NCBI GenBank assembly: GCA_963821585.1
Contig: CAWGEI010000005.1
Span: 646,603-710,602, forward strand
Source: an uncultured Acidobacteriota bacterium
GTDB lineage: Bacteria > Acidobacteriota > Thermoanaerobaculia > Gp7-AA8
Reading direction: 5' to 3'
DNA: 64,000 bases
Translations under genes and position numbers: made by a program
Part shown: positions 4,363-63,082 of the stretch, piece by piece
How the letters are laid out: each line of letters opens with the position of its first letter
Numbering within the stretch: position 1 is the first letter of the stretch
Notes under the pieces: generated by a model
The model's input: the letters and a program-made list of their open reading frames with translations, nothing else
What the model was told of the DNA's origin: nothing
Database searches by the model: none

Positions 4363-4364
4363 TC

Positions 4365-4556
4365 TGTCGCCCGCTACGCGGGCTCCCTCTTTGCGCGCCC
4401 GCCGCGTCTCCCGGCTGAAGCCGGGAGCTATTGTCTATTGCCGCCTACGGCGGCAGTCGCTCTTGCCCGCGTAGCGGGCAGCCAGAAAATAGACCCCGGC
4501 TTCAGCCGGGGGAACCGCGCGCGCCGCGCGAACGAGCCCGCGTAGCGGGCGACAGA
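4365..4556. repeat. A-type ~190-bp nested-palindrome intergenic element, copy A1
   Basis: The termini CTGTCGCCCGCTACGCGGGCTC ... GAGCCCGCGTAGCGGGCGACAG are perfect inverted repeats. Inner pair: CCCGGCTGAAGCCGGG..CTATTGTCT / AGAAAATAGACCCCGGCTTCAGCCGGGG. Central hairpins: GCCGCCTACGGCGGC and GCCCGCGTAGCGGGC. Fills the gap between two convergent stop codons. Confidence 0.9.
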
Positions 4557-6086: not shown

Positions 6087-8195
6087 GTGCCTGGTGGAAA
6101 AGCGCTGCCCCTGCTGAACCGCGAGCTCAGCCGGCTCGACTACAACAGCCGTGTGCTCGAAAAGGCCCGCGATGCGAGCGTGCCCCTGATCGAGCGCCTG
6201 CGCTTCCTCACGTACTGCTCGCGCAACCTCGACGAATTCTTCATGGTCCGCGTCGGCGCGACCCGCGACCTCCTCGACGCCGGCATCACCGAGCGCTCCC
6301 CCGACGGCCTCCTGCCCTCCGAGCAGATGGCCGCGATGCGCCAGCGCACCCGCGAGCTCCTCGACGCCATGTACGGCTGCCTGATCGGCGAGCTCCTGCC
6401 CGAGCTGCGCAGGGAAGGAATCATCGTCGAGAGCTTCCGCGATCTGGGTGCCGAGGAACAGGCGCAACTGACGAAGCTCTTCATCGAGTCCGTCGCGCCC
6501 GTGCTCACCCCCCTGGCCATCGACCCCGGCCATCCGTTCCCGTTCGTCGCCAACCTCGCCCTCAACATCGCCGTGACCGTGGAGTCCGGACGCGGCGAGC
6601 ACGTCGTCCTGTTCAAGATCCCGCCGTCGCTGTCGCACTTCATCCGCGTCGCCGACCAGCGCTTCGTGCCCATCGGGTCGCTCATCGTCGCCCACCTCGA
6701 GCACTTCTTCCCCGCGCTCAAAGTCCGCGGCGCGGTGCTCTTCCGCGCCATCCGCAATTCCGAGCTGAGCATCGACCGCGACGAAGTCGAAGACCTGCGC
6801 GACTCCGTCGAGGCCGAGCTGCGGCGGCGCGAGCGGAAACAGGTCGTCTGCCTGGAGATCGACCGGCGCGCGGACGACGACATCGTGCGTCTCCTCACGG
6901 AAGGTACCCGGGCCCGCGCGGAGGACGTCTACCGCGTGCCCGGCTTTCTCAAGATCAACGACCTCGCCGCCGTCGCGGACGCCGTCGAGACGCACGGCTA
7001 TCCCGAGTTCAATCCCCGCCTTCCGCAGCGCCTCGCGTCCACGGCCGACATCTTCTCCATCGTCCGCGAGCGCGACGTCCTCCTGCACCGCCCGTACGAC
7101 TCCTTCACCGCCATCATCGAGCTGCTGCACGCGTCGGCCACCGATCCCGCGGTCGTCGCCATCAAGCAGACCGTCTACCAGACCGACGAGGAGTCGCCCG
7201 TCATCGACAAGCTCGTCCTCGCGGCGCTGAACGGCAAGCAGGTCACGGTCGTCATCGAGCTGCAGGCGCGCTTCGAGGAGAAGCGCAACATCGCCATGGC
7301 CGCGCGGCTGCAGGAGGCGGGCGCGCAGGTCGTCTACGGCCTGGTCGGGATTCAGGCGCACGCGAAGGTGTGCGTCGTCGTCCGCAGCGAAGACGACGCC
7401 CTGCGGCACTACGTCCACCTCTCGACCGGCAACTACAACGTCGACACCGCGCGCGCGTACTCGGACCTCGACCTCCTCACCGCGCACGAGGAGCTGGGTC
7501 GCGACGCGTCGCAGCTCATCAACATGCTCACCGGCTTCAGCGCCGCCAGCCTTGCCAGCGGCAAGCCGCAGTGGAAGCACTTCCTCGTCGCGCCGTTCGA
7601 CCTGCAGCGCGCGCTCATCGCCAAGATCGAGCGCGAGGCGAAGCACGCCAAAGACGGGAAGCCCGCGCGCATCGCCGGGAAGGTGAACTCGCTCGTCGAT
7701 CCAACCGTCATCGACGCCCTGTACCGCGCCGCCGACGCCGGCGTGCAGATCGACCTCGTCGTCCGCGCCATCTGCTCGCTCGTCCCCGGCGGGAACATCC
7801 GGGTAATGTCCGTCGTCGACCGCTACCTCGAGCACTCGCGCATCGTCCGCTTCGAGAACGGCGGCGCGCCCGAGGTCTATCTCTCCAGCGGCGACTGGAT
7901 GCCGCGCAACTTCACCCGGCGCGTCGAGGTGATGTTTCCTCTGCTCGACGCCACCGCCCGCGAGCACGCCGAACAGATCCTCGACCTCACCCTCCAGGAC
8001 GGCGCCTCCTCCTGGGACCTCCAGCCCGACGGCACCTGGAAGCGCCGCAGCGGCGGCCTCTCCAGCCAGCAGCGCTTCATCGACATCACCCGCGCCGAGG
8101 CTGTTTCACTGGGCGACTATGACGAGTCGATCGAGCAGGCTTCGAAGATTCGCCGGAAGGCGAAGCGGAAGAAGACGCCCGCGCGATCTCGATGA
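6087..8195 (+). CDS. ppk1: polyphosphate kinase 1 (copy a)
   Basis: 702 aa. LLNRELSRLDYNSRVLE N-terminus, RNLDEFFMVRV, and two PLD-like HxK regions (IQAHAKVCVV, LEHSRIV). Confidence 0.9.
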   Translation: MPGGKALPLLNRELSRLDYNSRVLEKARDASVPLIERLRFLTYCSRNLDEFFMVRVGATRDLLDAGITERSPDGLLPSEQMAAMRQRTRELLDAMYGCLIGELLPELRREGIIVESFRDLGAEEQAQLTKLFIESVAPVLTPLAIDPGHPFPFVANLALNIAVTVESGRGEHVVLFKIPPSLSHFIRVADQRFVPIGSLIVAHLEHFFPALKVRGAVLFRAIRNSELSIDRDEVEDLRDSVEAELRRRERKQVVCLEIDRRADDDIVRLLTEGTRARAEDVYRVPGFLKINDLAAVADAVETHGYPEFNPRLPQRLASTADIFSIVRERDVLLHRPYDSFTAIIELLHASATDPAVVAIKQTVYQTDEESPVIDKLVLAALNGKQVTVVIELQARFEEKRNIAMAARLQEAGAQVVYGLVGIQAHAKVCVVVRSEDDALRHYVHLSTGNYNVDTARAYSDLDLLTAHEELGRDASQLINMLTGFSAASLASGKPQWKHFLVAPFDLQRALIAKIEREAKHAKDGKPARIAGKVNSLVDPTVIDALYRAADAGVQIDLVVRAICSLVPGGNIRVMSVVDRYLEHSRIVRFENGGAPEVYLSSGDWMPRNFTRRVEVMFPLLDATAREHAEQILDLTLQDGASSWDLQPDGTWKRRSGGLSSQQRFIDITRAEAVSLGDYDESIEQASKIRRKAKRKKTPARSR

Positions 8196-10203
8196 ACCGC
8201 TGCTGGCTGCGGATCGCGTTCGCACGCGCCTTCCGCCGCCGGTACGTCCCGTCCGGCTGCAGCCGCCAGCCCTTCGCCTCGTCGGCCAGGCACGTGCCCA
8301 GGATCTGCAGCTCGATGCGGTCGCGCAGCTGCGGCGAGAGCACCGGCCACGTCACCTCCATCCGCCGGAAGAAGTTGCGCGGCATCCAGTCGCCGCTCGC
8401 GGCGTAGACCTCCGTCGCCCCGCCGTTGCGGAACAGGAAGATCCGCGAGTGCTCGAGAAAGCGGTCGATCACCGACAGCACGCGGATGTTCTCCCGCGGC
8501 ACGAGACAGCAGATCCCGCGGACGATCAGGTCGATCTTCACCCCCGCGTCCGCCGCGCGGTAGAGCGCCTCGATGACGGCCGGGTCGACGAGTGAGTTCA
8601 TCTTCGCGATGATCTGCGCCGGACGCTTCTCCCGCGCGTGCTTCGTCTCGCGCTCGATCATCCGCAGCGTCCACGCGTGATACTCCATCGGCGCGACCAC
8701 GAGCTTCCGCCACCGCCAGTCGCGCGAGTGGCTGGCGAAGATCTCCTGCGCAGTCTCCGCGCTGTACCCCGTGATCAGGTTCAGCAGCTGCGACGCATCC
8801 TCGGCGATCTGCGCGTCCGCCGTGAGCAGGTCGATGTCCGTGTACAGCCGCGCCGTCTTCGCGTTGTAGTTGCCCGTCGAGAGATGGACGTAGCGCCGCA
8901 GCTCGCCTCCTTCGCGACGAATGACCAGGCAGATCTTCGAGTGCGTCTTGATGCCCACCAGGCCGTACACCACCTGCACTCCGGCCTCCTCGAGGCGCCG
9001 CGCCCAGGCGATGTTGCGCTCCTCGTCGAAGCGGGCCTGCAGCTCGACGATGGCCGCAACCTGCTTCCCTTTCTCGGCCGCGCGCGCCAGTGCTTCGACG
9101 ACCACCGAGCCCGGCTCCGTGCGATAGAGCGTCTGCTTGATGGCGATGACGTCCGGATCGTCCGCCGCGCTCTGCACGAACTCGACGACCGCCGTGTACG
9201 CGTCGTACGGCCGGTGTAGCAGGATGTCGCCGGCGCGAATGATCGAGAAGATGTCGTCGCGCGTCGCCAGCTCCGCGGGGATGCGCGGGTTGAACGGCTC
9301 GTCCTTCAGCGAGCCGTCGATACGCCCGTGGATCTCGATGAGATCGCCGACTTTCGGCAGCGCGGGGGTGAGGAAGACGTCGTCGCGCACGACGTCGAGC
9401 TCGCGCTGCAGCAGCGCCAGCATCTCGTCGCTGGCGGTCTTCGCGACCTCCATCCACACCACTTCCTTCCGCTCGCGCATCCGCAGCTCGGTCTCGACGG
9501 ACTTGAGCAGGTCCTGGACCTCGTCTTCGCGCAGGGCGATGTCGGCGTTGCGCATCACGCGGAACGGCACGACCTCGCGCACGTCCAGTCCGGGAAAGAA
9601 ATACGACGCGTGCAGGCGGATCACCTCTTCGACGGGCACGAAGCGCCGCGGGGCGATGGCCACGAAGCGCGGCAGCGACTTCGGGATCTTGATGAATGCG
9701 GTGTACGTCTCGACGCCGCTGGCCAGCCTCACCGCGAGGTTGAGCGAGCCGCTGGCGAGGAACGGCAGCGGATGCCCTGGATCGACCGCGAGCGGCGTGA
9801 GGATCGGCGCCACCCGCGTCTGGAACTCCTCGGCGATCGCCGCCTGCTGCTTCTTCGTCAGCGCGCTGGCGGGGACGATGCGCACGCCCGCGGTCTCGAG
9901 CCGCGGCAGCAGCACGTCCAGGACGCGGTACATGTCGCGCTGCAGCGCCTTCACCTTCTCGCGGATGGCCTTGAGCTGCTGCTTCGGCGTGAGGCCGTCC
10001 ATGGAGCGCTCGCGGATGCCGTTGTCGATCAGCCGCCGGATGCCGCCCACGCGCACCATCAGGAACTCGTCGAGGTTCATGGCGGTGATGCTGAGAAACT
10101 TCGCCCGCTCCAGCAGCGGCACATCCCCACTCTCCGCCTCGGCCAGCACCCGGCGATTGAACTCGAGCCAGCTCAGCTCGCGATTGAAGAGAGGGAGGTC
10201 CAC
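8086..10203 (-). CDS. ppk1: polyphosphate kinase 1 (copy b, diverged paralogue)
   Basis: Track ORF 8086..10257. A GTG at 10203 (VDLPLFNRELSWLEFNRRVLAE) avoids reading through hairpin E1. By eye, about half the residues are identical to copy a. The 3' end overlaps copy a by 110 nt. Confidence 0.9.
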   Translation of the reverse strand: MDLPLFNRELSWLEFNRRVLAEAESGDVPLLERAKFLSITAMNLDEFLMVRVGGIRRLIDNGIRERSMDGLTPKQQLKAIREKVKALQRDMYRVLDVLLPRLETAGVRIVPASALTKKQQAAIAEEFQTRVAPILTPLAVDPGHPLPFLASGSLNLAVRLASGVETYTAFIKIPKSLPRFVAIAPRRFVPVEEVIRLHASYFFPGLDVREVVPFRVMRNADIALREDEVQDLLKSVETELRMRERKEVVWMEVAKTASDEMLALLQRELDVVRDDVFLTPALPKVGDLIEIHGRIDGSLKDEPFNPRIPAELATRDDIFSIIRAGDILLHRPYDAYTAVVEFVQSAADDPDVIAIKQTLYRTEPGSVVVEALARAAEKGKQVAAIVELQARFDEERNIAWARRLEEAGVQVVYGLVGIKTHSKICLVIRREGGELRRYVHLSTGNYNAKTARLYTDIDLLTADAQIAEDASQLLNLITGYSAETAQEIFASHSRDWRWRKLVVAPMEYHAWTLRMIERETKHAREKRPAQIIAKMNSLVDPAVIEALYRAADAGVKIDLIVRGICCLVPRENIRVLSVIDRFLEHSRIFLFRNGGATEVYAASGDWMPRNFFRRMEVTWPVLSPQLRDRIELQILGTCLADEAKGWRLQPDGTYRRRKARANAIRSQQRFIEIARASSSASPSGESSKPARSTRHSRPVKQPRRG

Positions 10204-10220
10204 GCCGGAGAAGCATAACG

Positions 10221-10304
10221 GTTGACAGTTGGCAGTTGACAGTCGACAGGAGATCAACTTCAGCGCGCTCCTCTCCTGTCAACTGCCAACTGTCGACTGT
10301 CAAC
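10221..10304. repeat. heptamer-armed hairpin E1 (CAGTTGR family)
   Basis: Left arm GTTGACAGTTGGCAGTTGACAGTCGACAGG. Right arm CCTGTCAACTGCCAACTGTCGACTGTCAAC. Lies between the divergent ppk1b and MFS starts. Confidence 0.85.
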
Positions 10305-10339
10305 TATCCAGGGCCTACATCGTGCAAAATGCGCCGCCA

Positions 10340-11842
10340 ATGCTCGTAATGTCTTCGCGACGCCGCTGGTTCGTGACCGCCGGCGTCATGACCGGAATGC
10401 TCCTCGCCGCGCTGGAGGCGACCGTGGTCGGTACGGCCATGCCGACCATCGTCGCGGCCCTCGGCGGTCTCGCTCACTACAGCTGGGTGTTCTCCGCGTA
10501 TCTGCTCACCTCGACCGTGACCGTGCCGGTGTGGGGCAAGCTGTCGGATCTCTTCGGGCGCCGGCGCCTGTTCCAGATCGGCGTGGCCGTGTTCCTGATC
10601 GGTTCGGCCGCGTGCGGCCTGGCGCAGACGATGACCCAGCTCATCCTCGCGCGCGCCTTCCAGGGCCTCGGCGCCGGCGCGCTCGTGCCGCTGGCCATGA
10701 CCATCATCGGCGACATCTTCACGCTGGAGGAGCGCGCGAAGATGCAGGGCTTCTTCAGCGGCGTGTGGGGCATCTCCAGCGTCTTCGGCCCGCTCGTCGG
10801 CGGCTTCATCACCGATCAGCTTTCGTGGCGCTGGGTGTTCCTTCTGAACCTGCCGGTGGGCATCGCCGCGGCGATCATCATCGGCGTGGCGCTGAAGGAG
10901 CCGCCACGGCACGAGGCCCCGTCGATCGACTACCTCGGCGCGACGGTGCTCACGCTCGCGGTCACCATCCTGCTGCTCGTGCTCGGGGCGACGACCATCG
11001 TCACGCCGCGCAATCTCGTGCTCATCGCGCTCGTGATCGGCGCGCTGTTCTGGTTCATCCACATCGAGCGGCGGGCGAAGGATCCGATGGTGCCGCTGGG
11101 TCTGTTCCGCAATCGCGTCGTCGCGGTGGCGGTGGGGGTGGGTTTTCTCGCTGGCATCGCCATGTTCGCCGCGATCACGTTCGTGCCGCTCCTCGCGCAG
11201 GGCGTCCTCGGCGCGACCGCCACGGAGGCGGGCTCGTTCCTCACGCCGCTGATGTTGTCGTGGGTGACCGTGTCCATCATCGGCGGACGGCTCCTGCTGC
11301 GCTTCGGCACGCGCATCCTCGTGGTCGTCGGCCTGGTGCTGATGTGCGGCGGCTTCGCCGCGCTGGCGACGTTCACGCGCACCACGCCGCGCATGCTCAT
11401 GGTCTTCGAGCTGATCCTCATCGGCTCGGGACTGGGCCTGGTGATGCTGACGCTGTTGATCGCGTCACAGCACTCCGTGCCGCGTGAACAGCTGGGTATC
11501 ACGACCTCGCTCAACCAGTTCTCCCGCTCCATCGGCGGCGCCCTCGGCGTGGCCATCCTCGGCGCCATGCTCGCCGCCGGCCTCGCGCAGTTCTCGCAGG
11601 ACCCGAACGCGCTCGTGAACCCCGAGGCCCGGGCGCACATCGCGCCCGCGGAGCTCGCGCAACTGCAGGGCGCCCTCGAAGGCACCCTCCGCAATATCTT
11701 CTGGGCCTGCACCGCCGTCGTCGCCCTCTCCATCGCCGGCGCCCTCACCCTCCCCGGCGGCAGAATGGGCGAGGCCCACGGCGAGCGCATGGTCCACGCG
11801 GAGATGACCAACATCGACCCCAAACACGAGCCGGAGGGATAG
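10340..11842 (+). CDS. MFS transporter, DHA2 (EmrB/QacA-like, 14-TMS) family
   Basis: MLLAALEATVVGTAMPTIV and GKLSDLFGRRRLF motifs with many hydrophobic segments. The ATG at 10340 was chosen because the track ORF start lies inside hairpin E1. Confidence 0.8.
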   Translation: MLVMSSRRRWFVTAGVMTGMLLAALEATVVGTAMPTIVAALGGLAHYSWVFSAYLLTSTVTVPVWGKLSDLFGRRRLFQIGVAVFLIGSAACGLAQTMTQLILARAFQGLGAGALVPLAMTIIGDIFTLEERAKMQGFFSGVWGISSVFGPLVGGFITDQLSWRWVFLLNLPVGIAAAIIIGVALKEPPRHEAPSIDYLGATVLTLAVTILLLVLGATTIVTPRNLVLIALVIGALFWFIHIERRAKDPMVPLGLFRNRVVAVAVGVGFLAGIAMFAAITFVPLLAQGVLGATATEAGSFLTPLMLSWVTVSIIGGRLLLRFGTRILVVVGLVLMCGGFAALATFTRTTPRMLMVFELILIGSGLGLVMLTLLIASQHSVPREQLGITTSLNQFSRSIGGALGVAILGAMLAAGLAQFSQDPNALVNPEARAHIAPAELAQLQGALEGTLRNIFWACTAVVALSIAGALTLPGGRMGEAHGERMVHAEMTNIDPKHEPEG

Positions 11843-12062: not shown

Positions 12063-12223
12063 GACGGAGCGCTGGCGTCTCGCCGGCTGTTCGGGCGGCG
12101 TCCCCGCCGCCCGGGCACTCGGGAGAACGGAGTCTCTCGCGTAGTGCCACTCTCCTCCGCCCACCCAAGTGGCGGCGCGGGACGCCGCCACGACAGCCGG
12201 CGGGGACGCCAGCGCTCCATTGG
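12063..12223. repeat. C-type palindromic element, full copy C1
   Basis: Termini GGAGCGCTGGCGTCTCGCCGGCTGT ... ACAGCCGGCGGGGACGCCAGCGCTCC are inverted repeats. The inner GGCGTCCCCGCCGCCCGGGCACTCGGGAG block is shared with 14268-14356 and, in reverse complement, with 41955-42129. Confidence 0.85.
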
Positions 12224-14269: not shown

Positions 14270-14356
14270 CGGAGCGCCGGCGTCCTCGCCGGCTGGTCGG
14301 GCGGCGTCCCCGCCGCCCGGGCACTCGGGAGGACGGAGCCTTTCGCGTCGTGCCAC
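14268..14356. repeat. C-type element, half copy C2
   Basis: GACGGAGCGCCGGCGTCCTCGCCGGCTGGTCGGGCGGCGTCCCCGCCGCCCGGGCACTCGGGAGGACGGAGCC...GTGCCAC matches the left half of C1. It starts at the MFS stop codon. Confidence 0.8.
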
Positions 14357-14692
14357 ACTGAACTCGATGGGTTCGCGCTTGAGCTCGATCTCTTCGCCCG
14401 AAATTGCACGGACAAATCAACCGTTAACTTCTTTGGGATGTATATTGAGGTTGCCTGTTGGTGGGTGAACGTCGGCCTCGCGCCGTGTGTTCTGGTCCGA
14501 TAGGGTCAGAGCCTAGCTCACCGCGGGCAATAACTTCGATGAGTCGATCGGCTTCGTTGCCGATCCTCGGTACCACGCGCCTCCCGGCTGCGACCGCGTG
14601 TCATCGACACCATGGTAAAGCGTTGAGGCAGCAGCGCTGATCCGCCTGTTCAGGCTCGCCCGCGACCCGGCATTGTGAGATCGTAACCACAC

Positions 14693-19428: not shown

Positions 19429-19869
19429 CGGAGCGTGACCAGACGATTTCGGAGCGCAACGACATGCCCCGGAAGCGGACGGCGTGCCCGCGGAGGGCGA
19501 CAGCACCCTCTAGGAGCGTAACAACACGCCCTTTGAGCGTAACAGCGCGCCTTTTGAACGTGATGTTACGCCTGTGGAGCGTAACGTTACGCCCGCGGAG
19601 CGTAGCGTTACGCCTGAAAGGCGTGTTGTTACGCTCGAAGGGCGTGTTGTTACGCTCAAAAGGTGTGGTGTTACGCTCAAAGAGCGTGTTGTTACGCTCC
19701 GGAGGCATGTCGTTGCGCTCGAAAGGTACGGAATCACGCCCGCGGAGCCTGCACACGTGCCCGGGAAACGTGCGGTTACGCCCGCGGGGCACGGACTCGC
19801 GCCCGATTCGCGTGGAGTTGCGCCCGCCGGCGACGGACTCCCGCCCAAATCGCGCGTGCGCGTCCGCCG
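19429..19869. repeat. array of 21 tandem ~21-bp units with GCGTAAC|GTTACGC core, globally an imperfect dyad centred at 19584/19585
   Basis: Unit starts: 19429, 19450, 19471, 19491, 19512, 19533, 19555, 19575, 19596, 19619, 19640, 19661, 19682, 19701, 19723, 19743, 19764, 19785, 19807, 19828, 19849. Left units are GAGCGTAACAACACGCC type and right units are its reverse complement. Five track ORFs in different frames run through it. Confidence 0.9.
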
Positions 19870-19942: not shown

Positions 19943-20131
19943 CTGTCGCCCGCTACGCGGGCTCATTTTCTTACTCCGCCACGCGTCCCCCGGCTGAAGC
20001 CGGGGTCTATTGTCTGTTGCCGCCTACGGCGGCTCCGTGTGCCCGCGTAGCGGGCTGCAGAAAATAGACCCCGGCTTCAGCCGGGGAACCGGGAGCGCCG
20101 CGCAGAACGAGCCCCGCGTAGCGGGCGACAG
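19943..20131. repeat. A-type element, copy A2
   Basis: Same termini and inner blocks as A1 (CTGTCGCCCGCTACGCGGGCTC ... GAGCCCCGCGTAGCGGGCGACAG). Confidence 0.9.
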
Positions 20132-27392: not shown

Positions 27393-27489
27393 AGTTGGCA
27401 GTTGACAGTTGGCGGTTGACAGGAGAGCCCGCCACCCACGGGGAGAGGGCGGGGGCCTCCTGTGAACTGCCAACTGCCGACTGTCAACT
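27393..27489. repeat. heptamer-armed hairpin E3 (CAGTTGR family)
   Basis: AGTTGGCAGTTGACAGTTGGCGGTTGACAGG ... CCTGTGAACTGCCAACTGCCGACTGTCAACT with an inner GC-rich hairpin. Upstream of rpmE. Confidence 0.85.
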
Positions 27490-27547
27490 AACCCCCCAGA
27501 ATTTTTCCCTTATACTGCCCGTTCCTACGCCACCGAAGGATCTAGCA

Positions 27548-28852: not shown

Positions 28853-29923
28853 ATGTACGACAAACTCGACGAAATCGAACAACGCTACGAAGAGCTTCAG
28901 CGGAAGATCGAAGATCCCTCCGTCGTGACGGACGTGTCCGCGTACCGCAAGACCATGAAGTCGATCGCCGAGATCGAAGAGGTCGTGGCGAAGTACCGCC
29001 AGCTCCGCGACATCCGCAAGCGGATCGCCGAGGCGAAGGAGATGGCCCGCGCCGACGACGACATGCGCGAGCTCGCGGAGATGGAGCTGAGCGAGCTCGA
29101 GCCGCAGGAGCCGGGCCTCGAGTCGCAGCTGAAAGTCCTCCTCCAGCCCCGCGACCCGAACGACGAGAAGAACGTCTTCGTCGAGATCCGCGCCGGCACG
29201 GGCGGCGACGAGGCCTCCCTGTTCGCCGCCGAGATCATGCGCATGTACATCCGCTACGCGGAGATGAAGCGCTGGAAGGTGGAGATCACGGACGCCAACT
29301 ACTCGTCCGTCAACGGCATCAAGGACGCCACGCTGCAGATCGAGGGCGACAAGCCGTACTCGCGCCTGAAGTTCGAGCCCGGCGTCCACCGCGTGCAGCG
29401 CGTGCCCGCCACCGAAACGCAGGGGCGCATCCACACGTCCGCGATCACCGTGGCCGTGCTGCCCGAGGTCGAGGACATCGACATCCAGATCAACGAGAAG
29501 GACCTGCGCATCGATACGTTCTGCTCGTCCGGACCTGGTGGGCAGTCGGTCAACACCACCTACTCCGCCGTCCGCATGACCCACCTCCCCTCGGGCGTCG
29601 TGGTGTCGTGTCAGGACGAGAAGTCGCAGATCAAGAATCGCGCGAAGGCGCTCAAAGTGCTGAAGGCGCGCCTCTACGACATCGAGCGCCAGAAGCGCGA
29701 AGCCGAGCTGTCCGCGACCCGCAAAGGCATGATCGGCTCCGGCGACCGCAGCGAAAAGATCCGCACCTACAACTTCCCCCAGGACCGCGTCACCGACCAC
29801 CGCATCGGCCTCACCGTCCACAACCTCCCCGACGTCATGAACGGCTACATCGACGTGTTGATCGAGCCGTTGAACGCCCACTTCCAGGCGGAGAAGCTCC
29901 GCGAGGCGGTGGAGGCGCGGTAA
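28853..29923 (+). CDS. prfA: peptide chain release factor 1
   Basis: PAT-type recognition region ([14 protein letters not shown]) and [11 protein letters not shown] (GGQ motif). Confidence 0.95.
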
Positions 29924-29952
29924 GGGTTAGGCTCCGAGGTACACTCGGTGCC

Positions 29953-30300
29953 GTGGCACGTACACTCGACGACGTTTTCCACGACGCGCTGCGGCTCTCG
30001 CTCGAAGATCGCGCGCAACTCATCCAGCTCCTCCACGGCAGCCTCATGACGGCGGAGGAACGCGAGATCGAGCAGGCGTGGATCGAAGAATCTGAGCGCC
30101 GCGTCCGTGAGGTCGAAGCGGGAACGGCGAAGACGATTCCTGGCGAGGAGGTTTTCCGCAAGCTGCGCGAGAAATATCGCGACAGGTCCGGGTGGCGAGA
30201 TGCGTGGGTGAGTGAAGTCGAGCGTAGAAAGCAGCGACTCGACAGCGGCGAGGCTCGGGAGCTCTCCATCGAAGAGTTCTTCGCGGATGAAGGCGATTAG
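29953..30300 (+). CDS. putative addiction-module antitoxin component (TIGR02574-like), orphan
   Basis: GTG 29953 gives LSLEDRAQLIQLLHGSLMTAEEREIEQAWIEESERRVREVEAGTAKTIPGEEVFRKLRE. A second partial copy of the AW..E.ERR....SG motif follows (DAWVSEVERRKQRLDSGEARELSIEEF). No toxin gene lies downstream; the start is uncertain. Confidence 0.5.
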   Translation: MARTLDDVFHDALRLSLEDRAQLIQLLHGSLMTAEEREIEQAWIEESERRVREVEAGTAKTIPGEEVFRKLREKYRDRSGWRDAWVSEVERRKQRLDSGEARELSIEEFFADEGD

Positions 30301-30310
30301 ACCAATCGCC

Positions 30311-30705
30311 CTGTAGCTTCAGTCGCAAAGGCGCTCACTTTAGGCGAGCGCGCCCCTCATCCGCCTTCGGCACCTTCTCCCCTCACTGAGGGGAGAAGGG
30401 CGAGGAAACGTGCATCTCGCAAGAAAGAAAATGGATAGCCTGTCTCTCGCGAGAAGGAACCTGGTCATCCCCTCTCCCCGTGCGTGAGCGCGGGGAGAGG
30501 GTGGCCGAAGGCCGGGTGAGGGGCGCGCTCGCCTAAAGTTAACGCCATTTCGGCTTCAGCCGGGAACGCGCGAGATCAGGGTTGCCGCTCACTACCGCGG
30601 GCATCCTCATATGTCCGCGTAGCGGACTACAGAAAATAGACCCCGGCTTCAGCCAGGGGAACGCGCGCGCGGCCGTGGGAACGAGCCCGCGTGAGCGGGC
30701 GACAG
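30311..30705. repeat. A-type element copy A3 (left arm truncated) carrying the B1 insertion
   Basis: The right part (…TGTCCGCGTAGCGGACTACAGAAAATAGACCCCGGCTTCAGCCAGGGG…GAGCCCGCGTGAGCGGGCGACAG) is collinear with A1. The left part is reduced to CTGTAGCTTCAGT. Confidence 0.75.
30324..30552. mobile_element. B-type palindromic MITE-like element, copy B1, flanked by 8-bp direct repeats
   Basis: Termini CGCAAAGGCGCTCACTTTAGGCGAGCGCGCCCCTCA... / ...TGAGGGGCGCGCTCGCCTAAAGTTAACGCCATTTCG. Flanks GCTTCAGT (30316-23) and GCTTCAGC (30553-60). Confidence 0.75.
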
Positions 30706-34281: not shown

Positions 34282-34370
34282 GACAGTTCACAGTTGGCAA
34301 TTGTCAGGAGAGCCGGGCTGAGCCCGGCTCTTTCATTTTCCTGCCAACTGCCAACTGCCGACTGTCAACG
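34282..34370. repeat. heptamer-armed hairpin E4 (CAGTTSR family) enclosing an intrinsic terminator
   Basis: CGACAGTTCACAGTTGGCAATTGTCAGG ... CCTGCCAACTGCCAACTGCCGACTGTCAAC. The inner AGAGCCGGGC-TGA-GCCCGGCTCT plus TTCATTTT (34308-34340) looks like a Rho-independent terminator. Confidence 0.85.
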
Positions 34371-34390
34371 GTTGTCATAGAATCCACCCG

Positions 34391-40498: not shown

Positions 40499-41059
40499 AT
40501 GCTTCAAGGTGCACAGAAAGACCCGCAGATCGTCACCAGTGACTGGCAGAAGATCGGCTCCGGCATCGACGGTGTGGTGATGCGCGAAGTGCTGCACGTC
40601 CCGCGCGACCACGGCATCATCACCGAGTCCTACCGGCGCGAATGGGACCCCACCGGCCTGCCGGTCGTCCACATCTACCAGTCCCGCCTGTTCCCCGGCG
40701 CGATCGGCGCGTGGAGCTGCCACATGAAATCGGTCGACCGCCTGTTCGTCAATCAGGGACACCTGAAGGTCGTGCTCTACGACGGCCGCGACGAGAGCCC
40801 GACGCACGGCATGCTGAAGGAGTATCACGTCGGCGACGCGCGCCCGACGTTCATCGTCCTCCCGACCGGCATCTGGCACGGCCTCCAGAACCTCGGCACG
40901 AGCGACGCCCTGGTGCTCAACTTCCCGACAGCTGGCCTACGACTACGAAGACCCCGACCACTGGCGATTGCCGTACGACTCGGACCAGATCCCGTACGCA
41001 TGGCACGCGTCGGAGGGGACGAGGTTCAGGGCGGACGCAAAGCGGGGCGTCGTAACGTA
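40499..41059 (+). CDS. RmlC-like cupin (dTDP-4-dehydrorhamnose 3,5-epimerase-like), one +1 frame shift near the 3' end
   Basis: GAGGAG RBS. GAWSCHMKSVDRLFVNQGHLKVVLYDGRDESPTHG...LPTGIWHGLQNLG. After about 40925 the frame continues as QLAYDYEDPDHWRLPYDSDQIPYAW... to the TAG at 41057-59. Confidence 0.65.
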
Positions 41060-41165
41060 GGGCGTGGCTTCAGCCCGCCCCTCGGGCGAACGGACCCTTC
41101 ACGTGAACCGTACCGGCGCACCCGGGGGGCGGGCTGAAGCCAGGGGCTGAAGCCACGCCCTACGT
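41055..41165. repeat. D-type palindrome between convergent gene ends
   Basis: ACGTAGGGCGTGGCTTCAGCCCGCCCC ... GGGGCGGGCTGAAGCCAGGGGCTGAAGCCACGCCCTACGT. Overlaps both stop codons. Confidence 0.8.
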
Positions 41166-41938
41166 CAGTACCCCCGATACTGCCCGCCGTCCACCAGCAC
41201 GGAGCTGCCCGTGACGAACGACGCGCGCTCGCTGCAGAGGAACGCGACGACGTCCGCGAGCTCGCTGGGCTGGCCGTAGCGGCCCAGGGGGATCGCGGTC
41301 ACGGCTTTGTCGGAGGTACTGCTGGGGGGTGATGCCCTGGTCTTTCGCGCGGATCTCGCTGAGCTGCTTCTGGCGGTCGGTGAGGAAGTGGCCGGGGAGG
41401 ACGGCGTTGACGAGGATGCCGTCCTTCGCGACCTGGTCGGCGAGCGTCTTGGTGAGGGCGGAGATGCCGGCGCGCAGCGTGGAGCTGACCGTGAGCAGCT
41501 CGGTCGGCTGCTTGGCGACGAACGACGTCAGGTGGACGATGCGTCCCCACTCCGCGCTGCTGCATGCCGGGGATGACGATCCGGCAGAGGCGTACGACGT
41601 TCAGCAGCGTCGAGTCGATGCCGCTCGGCCCACTGTTCCTCGGTCAGTTTGAGGAACGGCGCCGCGGGTGGGCCGCCGGTGTTGGTGACGAGGATGTCGA
41701 CCTGGCCGAAGCGCTCGATGGTGGCGTCGTACCAGCGCTGCAGGTCTTCGGCCTTCGAGACGTCGCAGGCGACGGACAAGGTCATCGCCGAGGGAGGGCG
41801 GACGGGCTCGAGGGGTCGGGAGCGCGAGCAGACCGACAGCCTGCACCCCTCGGCCGCCAGCGCCTCGGCGATCGCACGCCCGAGGCCCTTCGAGGCGGCG
41901 GCGACCATGGCGACGCGGTCGTTGATTCCGAGGTCCAT
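41165..41938 (-). pseudogene. SDR family oxidoreductase with at least 3 frame shifts
   Basis: MDLGINDRVAMVAAASKGLGRAIAEALAAEG... (ORF 41528..41938). Later segments ([50 protein letters not shown]; [41 protein letters not shown]) are read in other frames. Confidence 0.7.
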
Positions 41939-41954
41939 CGGGCTTGGACGATAT

Positions 41955-42129
41955 CATTGGAGTGCGGCGCCCACAGGACCGCCGCCGTCCCGGCGGCTGA
42001 TGTGGCGGCGTCCCGCGCCGCCACCTGGGTTGGGCGGGGGCGCGTGCCACGATGCGAGAGGCTCCGTTCTCCCGAGCGCCCGGGCGGCGGGGACGCCGCC
42101 CGAACAGCCGGCGGGACGCCAGCGCTCCG
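41955..42129. repeat. C-type element, full copy C3 (inverted relative to C1)
   Basis: The reverse complement aligns to C1 along both halves (…CGGAGCGCTGGCGTCCCGCCGGCTGTTCGGGCGGCGTCCCCGCCGCCCGGGCGCTCGGGAGAACGGAGCC…). Confidence 0.85.
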
Positions 42130-42188
42130 GCCGGCGTGGCGCCGGCACCACTTTTGAGACACACTCCTCCCACGCCACCGCACTCCCT

Positions 42189-44248: not shown

Positions 44249-44442
44249 CTGTCCTGCCGCCCGCTACGCGGGCTCATTCCCTCGCACCGCATGCGTTCCC
44301 CCGGCTGAAGCCGGGGTCTATTCCCTCGTGCCGCCTACGGCGGCGAGAGCTTCGCCTGCGTAGCAGGCTTCAGACAATAGACCCCGGCTTCAGCCGGGGA
44401 ACGGCGCGTCCCCAGCATGCAAGCCCGCGTAGCGGGCGACAG
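44249..44442. repeat. A-type element, copy A4
   Basis: CTGTCCTGCCGCCCGCTACGCGGGCTC ... AAGCCCGCGTAGCGGGCGACAG with the same inner blocks. Starts 8 nt after the lepA stop. Confidence 0.9.
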
Positions 44443-45926: not shown

Positions 45927-45987
45927 CAGGGCGGGCTTGAGGCCCGCCCTGCGAGATCCCTGGGCGGCTGAAGCCACGCCCTACGTG
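45927..45987. repeat. hairpin plus D-type half element between convergent genes
   Basis: CAGGGCGGGCTTGAGGCCCGCCCTG followed by GGCGGCTGAAGCCACGCCCTACGTG (same end as D1). Confidence 0.7.
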
Positions 45988-49704: not shown

Positions 49705-50257
49705 GCAACCGTCCGAGCCGTCGGGCATGCCGCGATGGGTGCCGGTGCTGATCGGCGCCATCCTCGTGGGCATGGCCGCACTCGCGGTCTACACCGGATT
49801 GCGCAGCCGCAACGAGGGCACGATCCTCGCGCACGTGCGCCCGCAGCACCAGCAGCAGGCCAATGCGCCCGCGCCCCCGGGCGAGCCGGGCGCCGGCGAG
49901 TCGCTCGTCGTCCACGGCGACGAAGGGGAGACCGCGCCCGCGGCGAACGAGCCCGTGCGCGGCCAGTCGCGCGCGGTGGTGACGGGCGGGCCGGGCGGTG
50001 TCAGCGCGGTCGTGCGCATCTGGGCGCGCCGCGGCATGGTGCTCAACATCCTGCCCGAGGACACGATGATCTACGTCAACGACCTGCCCATCGGCCAGGC
50101 CAAGCAGTTCAACACGATGGACGAAGCGTACGAGTTCGCCGCGGCAGGAAGCTACAACGTGAAGCTCGTCGCCCCGAACGGCGTGGAGAAGATGTACGTC
50201 GTGACCGCGAGCGACGACGCGCAGCAGGACGTAGCGCGCATCTCCGCGCAACTGTAG
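49682..50257 (+). CDS. hypothetical membrane-anchored protein
   Basis: One TM segment (WVPVLIGAILVGMAALAVYTG). C-terminal beta-rich domain (MIYVNDLPIGQAK...YNVKLVAPNGVEKMYVV). Overlaps the upstream gene by 23 nt. Confidence 0.5.
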   Translation: MTDHPSPEQPSEPSGMPRWVPVLIGAILVGMAALAVYTGLRSRNEGTILAHVRPQHQQQANAPAPPGEPGAGESLVVHGDEGETAPAANEPVRGQSRAVVTGGPGGVSAVVRIWARRGMVLNILPEDTMIYVNDLPIGQAKQFNTMDEAYEFAAAGSYNVKLVAPNGVEKMYVVTASDDAQQDVARISAQL

Positions 50258-50272
50258 GGCGCCGTAAATCGC

Positions 50273-50438
50273 CGCAATGGCGTTCACTTTAGGCGAGTGG
50301 GCCCCTCACCCGGCCTTCGGCTATCTTGGTGTTCCTTCTCGCGAGAGGGAAACCGGACTGTCCCCTCTCCCCGCGCGTGAGCGTGGGGAGAGGGTGGCCG
50401 AAGGCCGGGTGAGGGGCGCGCTCGCCTAAAGTGAACGG
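50273..50438. mobile_element. B-type palindromic element, copy B2 (short form, right end degenerate)
   Basis: CGCAATGGCGTTCACTTTAGGCGAGTGGGCCCCTCACCCGGCCTTCGGC ... GCCGAAGGCCGGGTGAGGGGCGCGCTCGCCTAAAGTGAACGG. Confidence 0.8.
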
Positions 50439-50463
50439 TCACCACCGCCCCGCCACCGCACTC

Positions 50464-51570
50464 CTAAACTCGCTTGATCACCGCGATGGACACGTCGTCG
50501 TCCGGCACGACCGTGCCGATGAACATGCGCCACTCGCCGAGGATTGAGTCGATCAGCGATTGCGCGGTCGCCTCGGGGTGCCAGCCGGCGATCACGTCGA
50601 GGTAGGTGTCGCCGAACTCGTTCTCCTGGAGGTTGCGGGCCTCGGTGAGGCCGTCGGAGTGCAACAAAATGCGCTCGCCGGAGGCCAGCGTGCCGGAAGT
50701 GCTCTCCCAGTCGAGATTCGCTTTCACGCCGAGGGGGTAGGCACCGCGGCCGATGCGCTCGACGACGCGGCCGGAGGCGTCGATCTTCAGCACCGGCGGA
50801 TGGCCGGCGATCGTCGCGACGTACGAGCCGTCCGGCTCGAGCAGGAAGTAGCAGCACGAGAAGAACGACCGCGAGCCGCCGGTGCGGCAGAGGATGCGGT
50901 TGAGCGACGCGACGATGCTCCCCGGCGACGGATCGACTTCGAGCTGCGTGCGGAACGCGGCGTGCGCGACCGCCATCACCAGGCCCGCGGCCATGCCGTG
51001 CCCCGAGGCGTCGCCGAACAGCACCGCCAGCCGGCCGTCGGGGAGCGGGACGAAATCGTAGATGTCGCCGCCGACCGTGTTCGCGATGCGGTTGAACGCC
51101 GCGATCTCCCACGGCTCCGTCCGCGGCATCTCGTGCGGGATGAGGCTGGCCTGCAGGTCCCGCGCGAGCTGCAGCTCGTCGCGGTACTTCACCTTGTCGA
51201 TCAGCTCCATCGCCAGGAGCAGCACCATCAGCAGGAACGTCGCCGCGACCTCGATGAACGTCCAGAGCGGCGGGTTGGCCGTCTGTGTGAAGAGCGAGAA
51301 CAGGCAGACGAAGAAGAAGACGAAGCCGAGGCCGAACAGAATCCGGCGCTGTGGCGCGAGGCGTTTGGCCAGGCCGTAGAAGATCGCGCTCACCGACCGG
51401 ACCCAGCGGCGGACGCGCCGCGGGTCCTTCTCGATGGACGCGCTGTGCTCGGCCATCAGGATCTTCTTCGTCTCCGGCCACTCGAGCGCGTACAGATTCG
51501 TCATGTCCGCCGAGGTCAGGGACGTGAAGGTGTTCTTGCCGAGATTCAGCCAATCGCGAAGACGAGCCAC
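50464..51570 (-). CDS. membrane-bound PP2C-type (SpoIIE/RsbU-like) serine phosphatase
   Basis: Two or three TM segments, then [34 protein letters not shown] and LHSDGLTEA motifs. Confidence 0.8.
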
Positions 51571-55409: not shown

Positions 55410-55417
55410 GGGGCTCT

Positions 55418-55764
55418 CTGTCGCCCGCTACGCGGGCTCGTTCCGCAGCCGCACCCGGTCCCCGGCTTCAGCCGCAATGGCGTTCACTTTAGGCGAGTGG
55501 GCCCCTCACCCGGCCTTCGGCCACCCTCTCCCCGCTGACGCGGGGCGAGGGCTATCGTGAGGTTCCTTCTCGCGAGAGATTGGCTATCAATTTTTGTTTC
55601 TTGCGAGAGGGAAACCGGATTGTCCCCTCTCCCCGCGCGTGAGCGTGGGGAGAGGGTGGCCGAAGGCCGGGTGAGGGGCGCGCTCGCCTAAAGTGAACGC
55701 CATTGCGGCTTCAGTCGGGGGACCGCGGCGGTCGCAGCATCTGAGCCCGCGTAGCGGGCGACAG
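55418..55764. repeat. A-type element copy A5 (short variant) carrying the B3 insertion
   Basis: CTGTCGCCCGCTACGCGGGCTC...CCCCGGCTTCAGC [B3] GCTTCAGTCGGGGG...GAGCCCGCGTAGCGGGCGACAG. Lies between convergent genes. Confidence 0.85.
55472..55707. mobile_element. B-type palindromic MITE-like element, copy B3, flanked by 8-bp direct repeats
   Basis: Termini CGCAATGGCGTTCACTTTAGGCGAG... / ...CTCGCCTAAAGTGAACGCCATTGCG. Flanks GCTTCAGC (55464-71) and GCTTCAGT (55708-15). Confidence 0.8.
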
Positions 55765-55767
55765 AAC

Positions 55768-56691
55768 CTATCGCGCGCCGTCGATCTTCTGCCGGTACCG
55801 CTCCACGTCCGGCGTGACCTCGATGAACGGCAGGACCGCGGTCAGCTCGCGCTTGGCCTGGTCGTATTGACCGTTCTCGTAATACGCCACGGCGATGTAG
55901 TAGCGGTAGGCCTCTTCGCCGGGACGGAGGGTGCCGACGTGCTGGAACGCGGTCAGCACTCCCGCGAAATCGCGCGCCCGGTACAGTCCCTCGGCCACCC
56001 GAATCCACGTCGCATGATCGTGCCCCCCGGCCTCGAGCAGCTCGCGATAGATCTTGCGGGCGTCGGTGAGGTTCCCGCCGAGCAGCGTCCGCTCGCCGGC
56101 GGTGAGGCGCGCGGGGACGTCGAGGGCGGGCTTCTTCGGCGCGGGCGGGGTGGGTTTGGGGGGAGCCTTCGCGGGAGGAGTCGCCGCCGGCTTCTCGTCG
56201 ACTTGTCGACTCGTCGGCCGGACCTCTGCCTTCTTCGGCGTATCGACCTGCGGCGGTGGCGCGGCTTTCTTCACCGGTGCCGCGGGCGGCGCCAATAAGG
56301 AGGTCGCATCCGCCGCCGGAAGCAGCTTCTTCGCCGACGTCGTGAACGCCGCGCGGATCTCGTCCGGCAGACTCAGCGATGCGAACTTCCGCTCCACCTT
56401 CTCGGCCGCCAGAATCCGCAGCGCCGCCTGGCGCGCCGGCTCGCTCTGGTTCAAGCGGTCCAGTGCGACGACCAGATACGCCTGCGCGGTCTGGTAGTGC
56501 TCGACCGAGTCGATCAGCCCGAAAGCCGCGAGACGCAACGGCGTCACCGCTGATTCATTGCGCCCGGCTTCGACCTCGGAAACGCCACGCCGCAGCAGCT
56601 CGACGTAGAAGTCGGTTGCGGTCGCCGCGGCCACCGGCATGCACGTCGAAATCGCGACGAGAAGAAGCGCCCACTTACTGAGTTTTCGCAT
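55768..56691 (-). CDS. hypothetical secreted protein with Pro/Ala/Lys-rich linker and TPR-like C-terminal region
   Basis: Signal peptide MRKLSKWALLLVAISTCMPVAAA. APPAAPVKKAAPPPQ...KAPPKPTPPAPKKP linker. C-terminal YYIAVAYYENGQYDQAKREL. Confidence 0.5.
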   Translation of the reverse strand: MRKLSKWALLLVAISTCMPVAAATATDFYVELLRRGVSEVEAGRNESAVTPLRLAAFGLIDSVEHYQTAQAYLVVALDRLNQSEPARQAALRILAAEKVERKFASLSLPDEIRAAFTTSAKKLLPAADATSLLAPPAAPVKKAAPPPQVDTPKKAEVRPTSRQVDEKPAATPPAKAPPKPTPPAPKKPALDVPARLTAGERTLLGGNLTDARKIYRELLEAGGHDHATWIRVAEGLYRARDFAGVLTAFQHVGTLRPGEEAYRYYIAVAYYENGQYDQAKRELTAVLPFIEVTPDVERYRQKIDGAR

Positions 56692-62897: not shown

Positions 62898-63082
62898 CTG
62901 TCGCCTGCTACGCAGGCTCGTTGTTGGGTCGCACTGCGTTCCCACGGCTGAAGCCGTGGGCTATTTCCTGCCGCCCGCTTCGCGGGCTTTCTGCTGCCGT
63001 AGGCAGCTTCAGGCAATAGACCCCGGCTTCAGCCGGGGACGGGTGCGTCGCAGGAGATCCAGCCCGCGTCAGCGGGCGACAG
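62898..63082. repeat. A-type element, copy A6
   Basis: CTGTCGCCTGCTACGCAGGCTC ... CCAGCCCGCGTCAGCGGGCGACAG with diverged but collinear inner blocks (compensatory changes within the small hairpins). Confidence 0.85.

Follow-up and report, generated by a model that had tools for sequence, protein, structure and literature searches.

The window analysed here, the whole 64,000-nucleotide stretch of contig CAWGEI010000005.1 from an uncultured soil member of the Thermoanaerobaculia (Acidobacteriota), contains two families of intergenic palindromic repeat, here called A and B, and some of the B elements are found inside A elements. One example lies between convergent genes for a histidine kinase and a TPR protein, where a complete B element of 235 bp, B3 (55473-55707), is embedded in a short A element, A5. 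More specifically, the left outer arm of A5 (CTGTCGCCCGCTACGCGGGCTC, a spacer and a CCCCG stem; 55418-55464) is followed by a target copy, GCTTCAGC (55465-55472), which comprises 2 bp of stem, a 4-nt loop and 2 bp of stem. B3 comes next, followed by a second target copy, GCTTCAGT (55708-55715), identical to the first at seven of eight positions, and by the right outer arm (a CGGGGG stem, a spacer and GAGCCCGCGTAGCGGGCGACAG; 55716-55764). No strand is assigned to these or to the other repeat features listed below.

The distribution of B termini in the window defines the family. The terminus GCGTTCACTTTAGGCGAG, with up to three mismatches allowed, occurs at six sites (30331+, 30528-, 50280+, 50421-, 55480+ and 55683-), where dinucleotide shuffles of the window give an expectation of 0.05 and none of 100 shuffles reaches six. 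The six sites form three inward-facing pairs and thus three B copies, as a preliminary description of this DNA had proposed, except that B3 begins at 55473 rather than at 55472 and that the right end of B2 is truncated. B3 has 25-bp terminal inverted repeats, CGCAATGGCGTTCACTTTAGGCGAG (55473-55497 and 55683-55707), which enclose two inverted copies of a 35-nt GC module, CCCCTCACCCGGCCTTCGGCCACCCTCTCCCC (55501-55536 and 55645-55680), and an AT-richer centre; the whole is a near-perfect palindrome of 235 nt with a predicted DNA folding energy of -116.6 kcal/mol (z = -20). The GC module is also present in the other two copies. B1 (30324-30552; 229 bp) is a diverged, older copy whose left GC module is of the CCCCTCATCCGCCTTCGGCACC type, and B2 (50273 to about 50440; ~165 bp) is a short copy with a deleted interior, whose right end reads ...GTGAACGG followed by TCACC where ...GTGAACGCCATTGCG is expected. 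B2 and B3 are 98-100% identical over their shared parts, while B1 is only 76-79% identical to either, which suggests that the insertions occurred in succession. B2, like B3, is located between convergent genes, and it does not lie in any A element. Across all copies B measures 155-363 bp, and the largest open reading frames (ORFs) inside B3 are 20-44 aa. Each B3 terminus contains an inward ATG (CGCA-ATG-GCG-TTC-ACT...) that opens one of two mirror-image ORFs of 27 and 38 aa starting with MAFTLGE (55477-55560 on the plus strand and 55587-55703 on the minus strand); these ORFs are probably meaningless, the ATG being conserved because it is within the terminus.

The position of B within A is precise. 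B3 and B1 both lie inside the 4-nt loop of the hairpin CCCCGGC-TTCA-GCCGGGG, so that the earlier placement of two of the three B copies within a GGCTTCAGCC core of A is upheld, the core being a hairpin with a 4-nt loop. B1 is flanked by GCTTCAGT (30316-30323) and GCTTCAGC (30553-30560), and the flanks of B1 and of B3 each match at seven of eight positions when compared directly and at five of eight when compared as inverted repeats. Both pairs of direct repeats previously reported are therefore confirmed, with the left repeat of B3 at 55465-55472 instead of 55464-55471. The loops of this hairpin make up ~0.14% of the window and yet host two of its three B copies; on these sequence counts, a position in the loop by chance is excluded. 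A5 consists of an outer arm, a single hairpin and an outer arm; once B3 and one repeat copy are removed, it forms a palindrome of 104 nt (-46.1 kcal/mol, z = -9) that has the GCTTCAG loop exactly at the apex.

Comparison of the region between the histidine-kinase and TPR genes in the window with that of three relatives is revealing of its history. One relative is a contig from a metagenome-assembled genome (MAG), L094 (DASSVT010000300; the same as Logan contig L095). Its identity to the window is 94% across the kinase gene and onward through the left arm of A, the arm that is kept at the orthologous locus of relatives. It continues (2531-2687) with the outer arm, a TGAA hairpin, an inner part and an intact CCCCGGCTTCAGCCGGG, ends its A sequence at the TPR stop codon, and has no B. 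A soil-metagenome contig of 899 nt (X4) joins 55463 to 55775 of the window through CGGCTTCAGCCGGGG plus 12 nt, and thus retains the left arm and an intact hairpin, again with no B. A third relative (X1) has neither A nor B, with 15 nt in place of 55414-55767. Because intact hairpins free of B are present in two of these relatives, B3 is an insertion into a pre-existing hairpin in the lineage of the window. The locus thus exists as outer arm plus hairpin, as outer arm, hairpin, inner part and hairpin, and as outer arm, hairpin interrupted by B and outer arm; since the surrounding A modules differ in L094, L095 and X4, the empty sites are not perfectly clean. The loci of B1 and B2 are affected by large replacements in the relatives and give no clean empty sites. 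In place of the truncated B2 (50250-50470), the X1 and X4 contigs carry another terminator-like hairpin, GGAGTGCGGAGGC-AACG-CCTCCGCACTCC, of which only the right arm can be made out in the window.

When one genome per species was scanned with the pattern CGYTMACTTTAGGCGAG, 89 stretches were returned, and true B elements beyond the window were found in three Thermoanaerobaculia MAGs only (CAZLGP01, DASUSN01 and DASVSV01). The matches outside the Thermoanaerobaculia were checked for paired termini, and all proved to be chance matches in coding sequence. CAZLGP01 and the window share ~85% identity across 2.9 kb of housekeeping sequence, and many CAZLGP01 contigs break off within B, as a repeat with many copies would be expected to cause. 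Among the window and these three MAGs the 25-nt termini are conserved while the interiors differ, which is what one would see if the element required nothing but its ends in cis; the variable interior noted in the preliminary description is thus seen across four genomes. One DASUSN01 locus (L065:2830-3235, DASUSN010000211) has a lone B-like terminus and GC module that run into a tandem array with a period of ~60-70 nt (GCCCACCGGCTGGGCGAGTTTGCCAGCCGG..TGACCAGTGTT), and no second B terminus is found at that locus.

The outside loci extend the target preference seen in the window. In total 33 B ends, 29 of them outside the window in the three MAGs, adjoin CC(C)GGC-TTCA/TGAA-GC half-hairpins at the same position. 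Every outside locus was recovered by virtue of its B; because the scan selected on the terminus and not on the flank, this abutment is not an artefact of ascertainment. Most of the remaining ends lie in two further hairpin or palindrome families. Within A, B is found in the left as well as the right hairpin and in short A copies, and it points either way with respect to the A arms; these arrangements imply several independent insertions.

Evidence for a target duplication has to be read with care at these sites, as the hairpin is nearly its own reverse complement and direct and inverted flanks are told apart by the two central loop bases alone. Among 11 complete hairpin-borne B copies, eight have direct flanks that match at 7-8 of 8 positions and a ninth, L017, has a 5-nt loop and a direct match of 7/9; at least nine direct pairs among 11 would have a probability of 0.033 if orientation were random. 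Had the duplicated GCTTCAG been simply part of a larger palindrome, the alternative raised in the preliminary description, inverted flanks would be predicted, and these are seen in two of the 11 copies. Direct repeats at other targets provide the stronger evidence. At L028, B lies in a different hairpin (CCCCGGGC-TCAT-GCCCGGGG) with GCTC(A)TGC on both sides. In a sister subfamily of the DASVSV01 genome, with termini GGCATACGCGCTAACTTTAGGCGAG, the direct repeats are CGTGCGG (7/7; L051), GGTCAG (6/7; L024) and, allowing a 1-nt deletion in the terminus, CACCCAC (L068), three sequences that are mutually unrelated. Because direct repeats are found at L028 and at these unrelated targets, the duplication is real and about 7-8 bp long. 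A duplication of 4 bp with termini starting GCCGCAATGG was considered as the sole reading and rejected, because the sister subfamily has 7-bp repeats, for which it cannot account.

The targets themselves fall into three families. In addition to the A hairpin, B is found in a hairpin bordered by CCAATTGTGG (in L028, in L035b and in most of the X4 flanks), and the DASVSV subfamily is found at the centre of 'C' palindromes (ACGTAGGGCGTGGCTTCAGCCCGCCCC...). The latter family (ACGTAGGGCGTGGCTTCAGCCCGCCCC ... GGGGCGGGCTGAAGCCACGCCCTACGT) is also represented in the window at 41045-41175 and 45930-45985, where it also holds GGC-TTCA-GCC hairpins. These targets have in common that the duplication lies symmetrically about the apex of a GC-rich palindrome, and on the sequences collected the target is better described as the apex of GC-rich hairpins and palindromes than as one sequence. 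This modifies the original proposal of a sequence-specific non-autonomous element that preys on another repeat: the shared termini, direct flanks and empty orthologous hairpins all agree with it, but the target is an apex, and two other repeat families are used.

Thus, B can be regarded with good confidence as a family of non-coding, non-autonomous transposons in the Thermoanaerobaculia, of the type known as miniature inverted-repeat transposable elements (MITEs), with a strong preference for the apices of GC-rich hairpins and palindromes. In the proposed mechanism, a transposase supplied in trans would bind the conserved 25-bp terminal inverted repeats, and B would integrate by way of cuts that are staggered by 7-8 bp and have at their centre the apex of a GC-rich hairpin or palindrome from another intergenic repeat family. 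In the window the target would be the CCCCGGC-TTCA-GCCGGGG loop of A, and insertion would split the hairpin and duplicate GC-TTCA-GC. The enzyme would be a DDE-type transposase, possibly IS1-like. The enzyme may read its target either as duplex DNA of symmetric sequence or as a hairpin that has been extruded. A bolder proposal, that the transposase reads structure (the apex of an extruded hairpin or cruciform) and that subfamilies with different outer ends have been retargeted to different palindromic repeats, with CGCAATGG-type ends directed to the hairpin of A or to the one with CCAATTGTGG and GGCATACG-type ends to the centre of C palindromes, is doubtful at present. If true, it would make B a parasite of other selfish repeats and a possible natural system for structure-directed integration, possibly representing a divergent IS1-like lineage in the Acidobacteriota.

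Several observations weigh against a transposon of this kind or limit its description. First, B termini enclosing a transposase gene were found neither in the window, nor in 27 Thermoanaerobaculia loci, nor in the scans of the genome collection and of viral contigs. Second, B2 has no flanking duplication. Third, two of the 11 hairpin-borne copies, L020 and L063, have perfectly inverted flanks, and the flanks of L035b are hybrid, one from each of two hairpin families. Fourth, the 8-bp length originally given for the duplication is a maximum: because the 2 bp adjoining the termini are self-complementary, the duplication at palindromic sites can be read equally well as 4, 6 or 8 bp, the 6- or 4-bp reading arising if the termini are extended by 1 or 2 nt, and the sister subfamily gives 7 bp. 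Five sites outside A likewise have a C immediately beyond CGCAATGG. Fifth, the A::B composites L006, L083 and perhaps L005, all from one MAG, have similar arms and may be duplicates of one composite rather than separate insertions. Lastly, the census consists of the window and 8-kb blocks from three incomplete MAGs. L020 and L063 have an inner A arm on both sides, and we infer that two B copies could have recombined to give their inverted flanks, as well as the hybrid flanks of L035b. B2, too, may have gone into a hairpin, with a deletion afterwards.

The search for a partner transposase gave uniformly negative results within its scope. There was no transposase among the 36 window proteins scanned, none of the long inverted repeats of the window encloses a transposase-like unit, and the 27 Thermoanaerobaculia loci share no long repeated segment. 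A metagenome scan with the pattern GCAATGGCGTTMACTTTAGG, specific to the window type of terminus, gave two matches, both chance occurrences in AT-rich coding DNA, and a scan of viral contigs for B termini gave nothing. In a BLAST search of plasmids the GC module of B matched alone and the termini did not. Metagenome contigs aligned to B were also considered as a source of an autonomous copy and were set aside, their high depth being due to the 35-nt GC module and not to the termini. Counted in register from the tip, 13-14 of the 25 positions of the B terminus are shared with the end of Escherichia coli IS1A (xGxAATGxC...AACTT); the shuffle p is about 0.001-0.003, before any correction for IS1 having been picked from about 30 families. 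IS1 elements make 8-9-bp duplications, close to the 7-8 bp of B. No homologue of IS1 InsA or InsB was found by tblastn in the window and the collected loci; a lone match in L052 was rejected as spurious, being antisense to fmt/rsmB. The likeness to IS1 is thus a lead only and not a family assignment, as a 25-nt end compared across phyla constitutes weak evidence.

The host repeat A appears to be of a different nature from B. A full A is a ~190-bp palindrome made of hairpins, in the order outer arm CTGTCGCCCGCTACGCGGGCTC, spacer, CCCGGC-TGAA-GCCGGG hairpin, inner small hairpins, CCCCGGC-TTCA-GCCGGGG hairpin, spacer and outer arm. Full copies are located at 4364-4555 (TGAA and TTCA hairpins both intact and unoccupied), 19943-20131 and 44254-44442 (two empty target hairpins each) and 62898-63082 (intact; left hairpin unit at 62941-62988). 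Together with the B-free hairpin at the orthologous locus of relatives, these copies provide the empty A sites that the preliminary description had suggested looking for. The CCCCGGC-TTCA-GCCGGGG hairpin is present in nine intact copies inside A elements of the window, and two more are split by B. The A copy that hosts B1 is partial and has a degenerate left stem; to the right of B1 there is a partial A array (30553-30705), with the right half of the broken hairpin and a degenerate outer arm, and then a further unit of inner hairpin, TTCA hairpin and outer arm ending at GCGGGCGACAG. An antitoxin-like ORF nearby (29608-30300; Pfam Unstab_antitox) has its stop codon at 30296-30300 inside A-derived sequence, in which 'attagacc' matches the A spacer 'aatagacc'; the repeat therefore provides the end of this reading frame. 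The left and inner hairpin unit of A at 62941-62988 matches the Rfam family RF01687, Acido-Lenti-1 RNA, with 44.7 bits against a gathering threshold of 37 bits, while the other A copies gave no match at E <= 1 in a scan of the whole window or in a 281-nt scan around 44254-44442. In this lineage the Acido-Lenti-1 motif may be a REP-like DNA repeat unit and not a small RNA gene.

No target duplication was seen around the A copies of the window, and in metagenome contigs A copies occur in tandem, with 11-17 nt between them. Since A is modular at one locus and found in tandem, it looks more like a hairpin mosaic of the repetitive extragenic palindromic (REP) or bacterial interspersed mosaic element (BIME) type than a transposon with defined ends, and it appears to behave like an expanding and contracting hairpin array. 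The earlier term 'nested MITEs' is thus apt for B and overstated for A. Like REP/BIME and REPIN sequences, A is extragenic and GC-rich, consists of short hairpins in alternating orientation, forms tandem clusters and varies modularly between relatives; unlike the classical 35-nt REPs, its unit is longer and more composite. A RAYT (Y1 transposase) was absent from the 36 window proteins scanned, the search having been limited to the window.

The modular nature of A raises the question of whether A and B are both modules of one mosaic repeat system (BIME/RIME-like), in which B units would have arisen at hairpins by recombination, template switching or a single-strand mechanism of the HUH/RAYT type, and the apparent duplications would be by-products of palindromy. 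The genome is full of modular palindromic repeats, the composition of A differs module by module at one orthologous locus, its copies stand in tandem, and two B copies have perfectly inverted flanks, all of which would be consistent with such an origin. The GC module inside B is also a palindromic module in its own right, and a very widespread one: in four metagenomes from soil and freshwater CCCCTCACCCGGCCTTCGGCCACCCTCTCCCC has a contig depth of 500-1100, against 0-20 for the B termini, with diverse flanks, and in plasmid BLAST searches it is 80-88% identical to intergenic DNA of Rhizobium, Sinorhizobium and Azospirillum replicons. However, a pure palindrome model predicts inverted flanks, whereas eight or nine of the 11 hairpin-borne copies have direct ones, and the sister subfamily has direct 7-bp repeats of unrelated sequence. 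The same termini are furthermore found in three hairpin families and at non-hairpin sites, and insertion of the HUH/IS200 type (IS200/IS605 family) proceeds without target duplication. A mosaic origin of B is therefore considered improbable.

Somewhat less credible still is the possibility that only one or a few insertions of B into A hairpins took place and that the A::B composite then multiplied by the spreading of A, which would inflate the apparent target preference. L006, L083 and perhaps L005 do share similar spacers of the outer and inner arms and the orientation of B, and the outside loci were all found by way of B. Against this, B is present in both orientations relative to the arms (L017 compared with L046), and in left and right hairpins and short A copies, and it is represented by three B subfamilies in four genomes. 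Apart from the cases above, the spacers of the A arms are unrelated, the two composites of the window lie in entirely different contexts, and further hairpin families are also used. It is very unlikely that B serves mainly as a structured element with a function, for example an RNA gene, a terminator acting in both directions or a site for protein binding between convergent genes, and that selection accounts for its distribution: B3 and B2 do lie between convergent genes and the predicted structure is extremely stable, but no Rfam family matches B at E <= 1, a scan around B3 found no promoter-like or terminator-like sites, the termini are conserved between genomes while the interior is not, and B is absent at the orthologous loci of close relatives.

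The remainder of the window holds repeats of other kinds. Its housekeeping genes include a pstS-like gene, ppx, two ppk1 paralogues, prfA, a Mur ligase gene, a greA-like gene, lepA and moaA; it is ordinary chromosomal DNA of 66.8% G+C, and the protein adjoining the B3 locus has its closest named relatives in Thermoanaerobaculia MAGs according to a homologue search. The two full-length ppk1 (polyphosphate kinase) paralogues lie tail to tail at 6087-10257 with 72-78% DNA identity and constitute the longest inverted repeat of the window. A repeat family (GGAGCGCTGGCGTC..CGCCGGCTGTTCGGGCGGCGTCCC...) with direct and inverted copies at 12079-12218, 14271-14359 and 41968-42136 flanks an MFS transporter gene on both sides and recurs at 42 kb. 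A 37-nt repeat, CTCCTGTCAACTGCCAACTGTCGACTGTCAAC, occurs at 10273-10309, 27457-27493 and 34338-34374 its copies being 81-92% identical. Two of them are located no more than about 100 nt upstream of plus-strand ORF starts (27592 and 34391). The third falls a short way into the longest form of the MFS ORF (10229-11842), which may in truth start farther downstream. This repeat could be a shared promoter, operator or leader. Lastly, a dense block of tandem and inverted repeats (GGGCGTGTTGTTACGCTC units; 19479-19713) lies directly upstream of the A copy at 19943.

A literature search for the B terminus sequence and for transposable elements of the Thermoanaerobaculia returned nothing relevant, and the comparison with known systems is accordingly made by type of element. 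MITEs are defined as elements usually of <200 bp and up to about 400 bp that have no transposase gene (Delihas 2011, PMC3184786). By its sequence B has every feature of a MITE as set out there, except an identified cognate insertion sequence. Like Nezha of cyanobacteria and the Correia MITEs, it is small, has terminal inverted repeats and a target duplication, and lacks a transposase gene; the very stable predicted stem-loop, the multiple copies and the filled and empty orthologous sites are further points of agreement. Nezha has a cognate insertion sequence with the same termini (ISNpu3), whereas none was found for B. Most described MITEs have a short target preference such as TA, while B is almost confined to the hairpin apices of other repeats.

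In its choice of target, B resembles the insertion sequences that recognise REP elements, which include IS1397 and ISKpn1 (IS3 family), ISPsy8 (IS3), and IS621, ISPpu9, ISPpu10 and ISPa11 (IS110) (PMC1525189). As in the type 1 association of Tobes and Pareja (2006), nearly all copies of B lie in an extragenic palindromic repeat at the same point, and the intact palindrome is recovered on removing the element and one copy of the repeat. The closest of these elements is ISRm22, assigned to the IS4 family by Tobes and Pareja (2006), which inserts at the palindromy axis of Sinorhizobium meliloti REPs with 6-bp direct repeats and of which some copies carry hybrid or imperfect repeats, put down to recombination between copies (PMC1525189). 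B shares with ISRm22 the palindromy axis, the short direct repeats and the occasional hybrid repeats. Symmetric targets with GC ends are typical of DDE transposases, as discussed for Tn5 (PMC1525189). The length of the duplication differs among these elements, being 7-8 bp in B, 6 bp in ISRm22, 3 bp in ISPsy8, 2 bp in ISPpu9 and ISPpu10 and none in ISPa11.

B is thus a clean case in nature of a MITE inserting at a specific target, in a phylum that has received little study, and not a new mechanism; the current understanding of transposition is unchanged by it. Elements of this kind insert where harm is small; they also break assemblies, and they give precise markers for strain-level evolution. 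The near-exclusive choice of a 4-nt hairpin loop may offer a model of target selection if the partner transposase is found. Unlike the REP-targeting insertion sequences, B is non-autonomous and without a transposase gene at 155-363 bp, it uses several unrelated hairpin families, and its hosts are Thermoanaerobaculia, a little-studied and uncultured class of the Acidobacteriota, rather than Proteobacteria. Homing to extragenic palindromes, a behaviour known for the IS3, IS110, IS4, IS256 and IS5 families in Proteobacteria, is thereby extended to a non-autonomous element of the Acidobacteriota.

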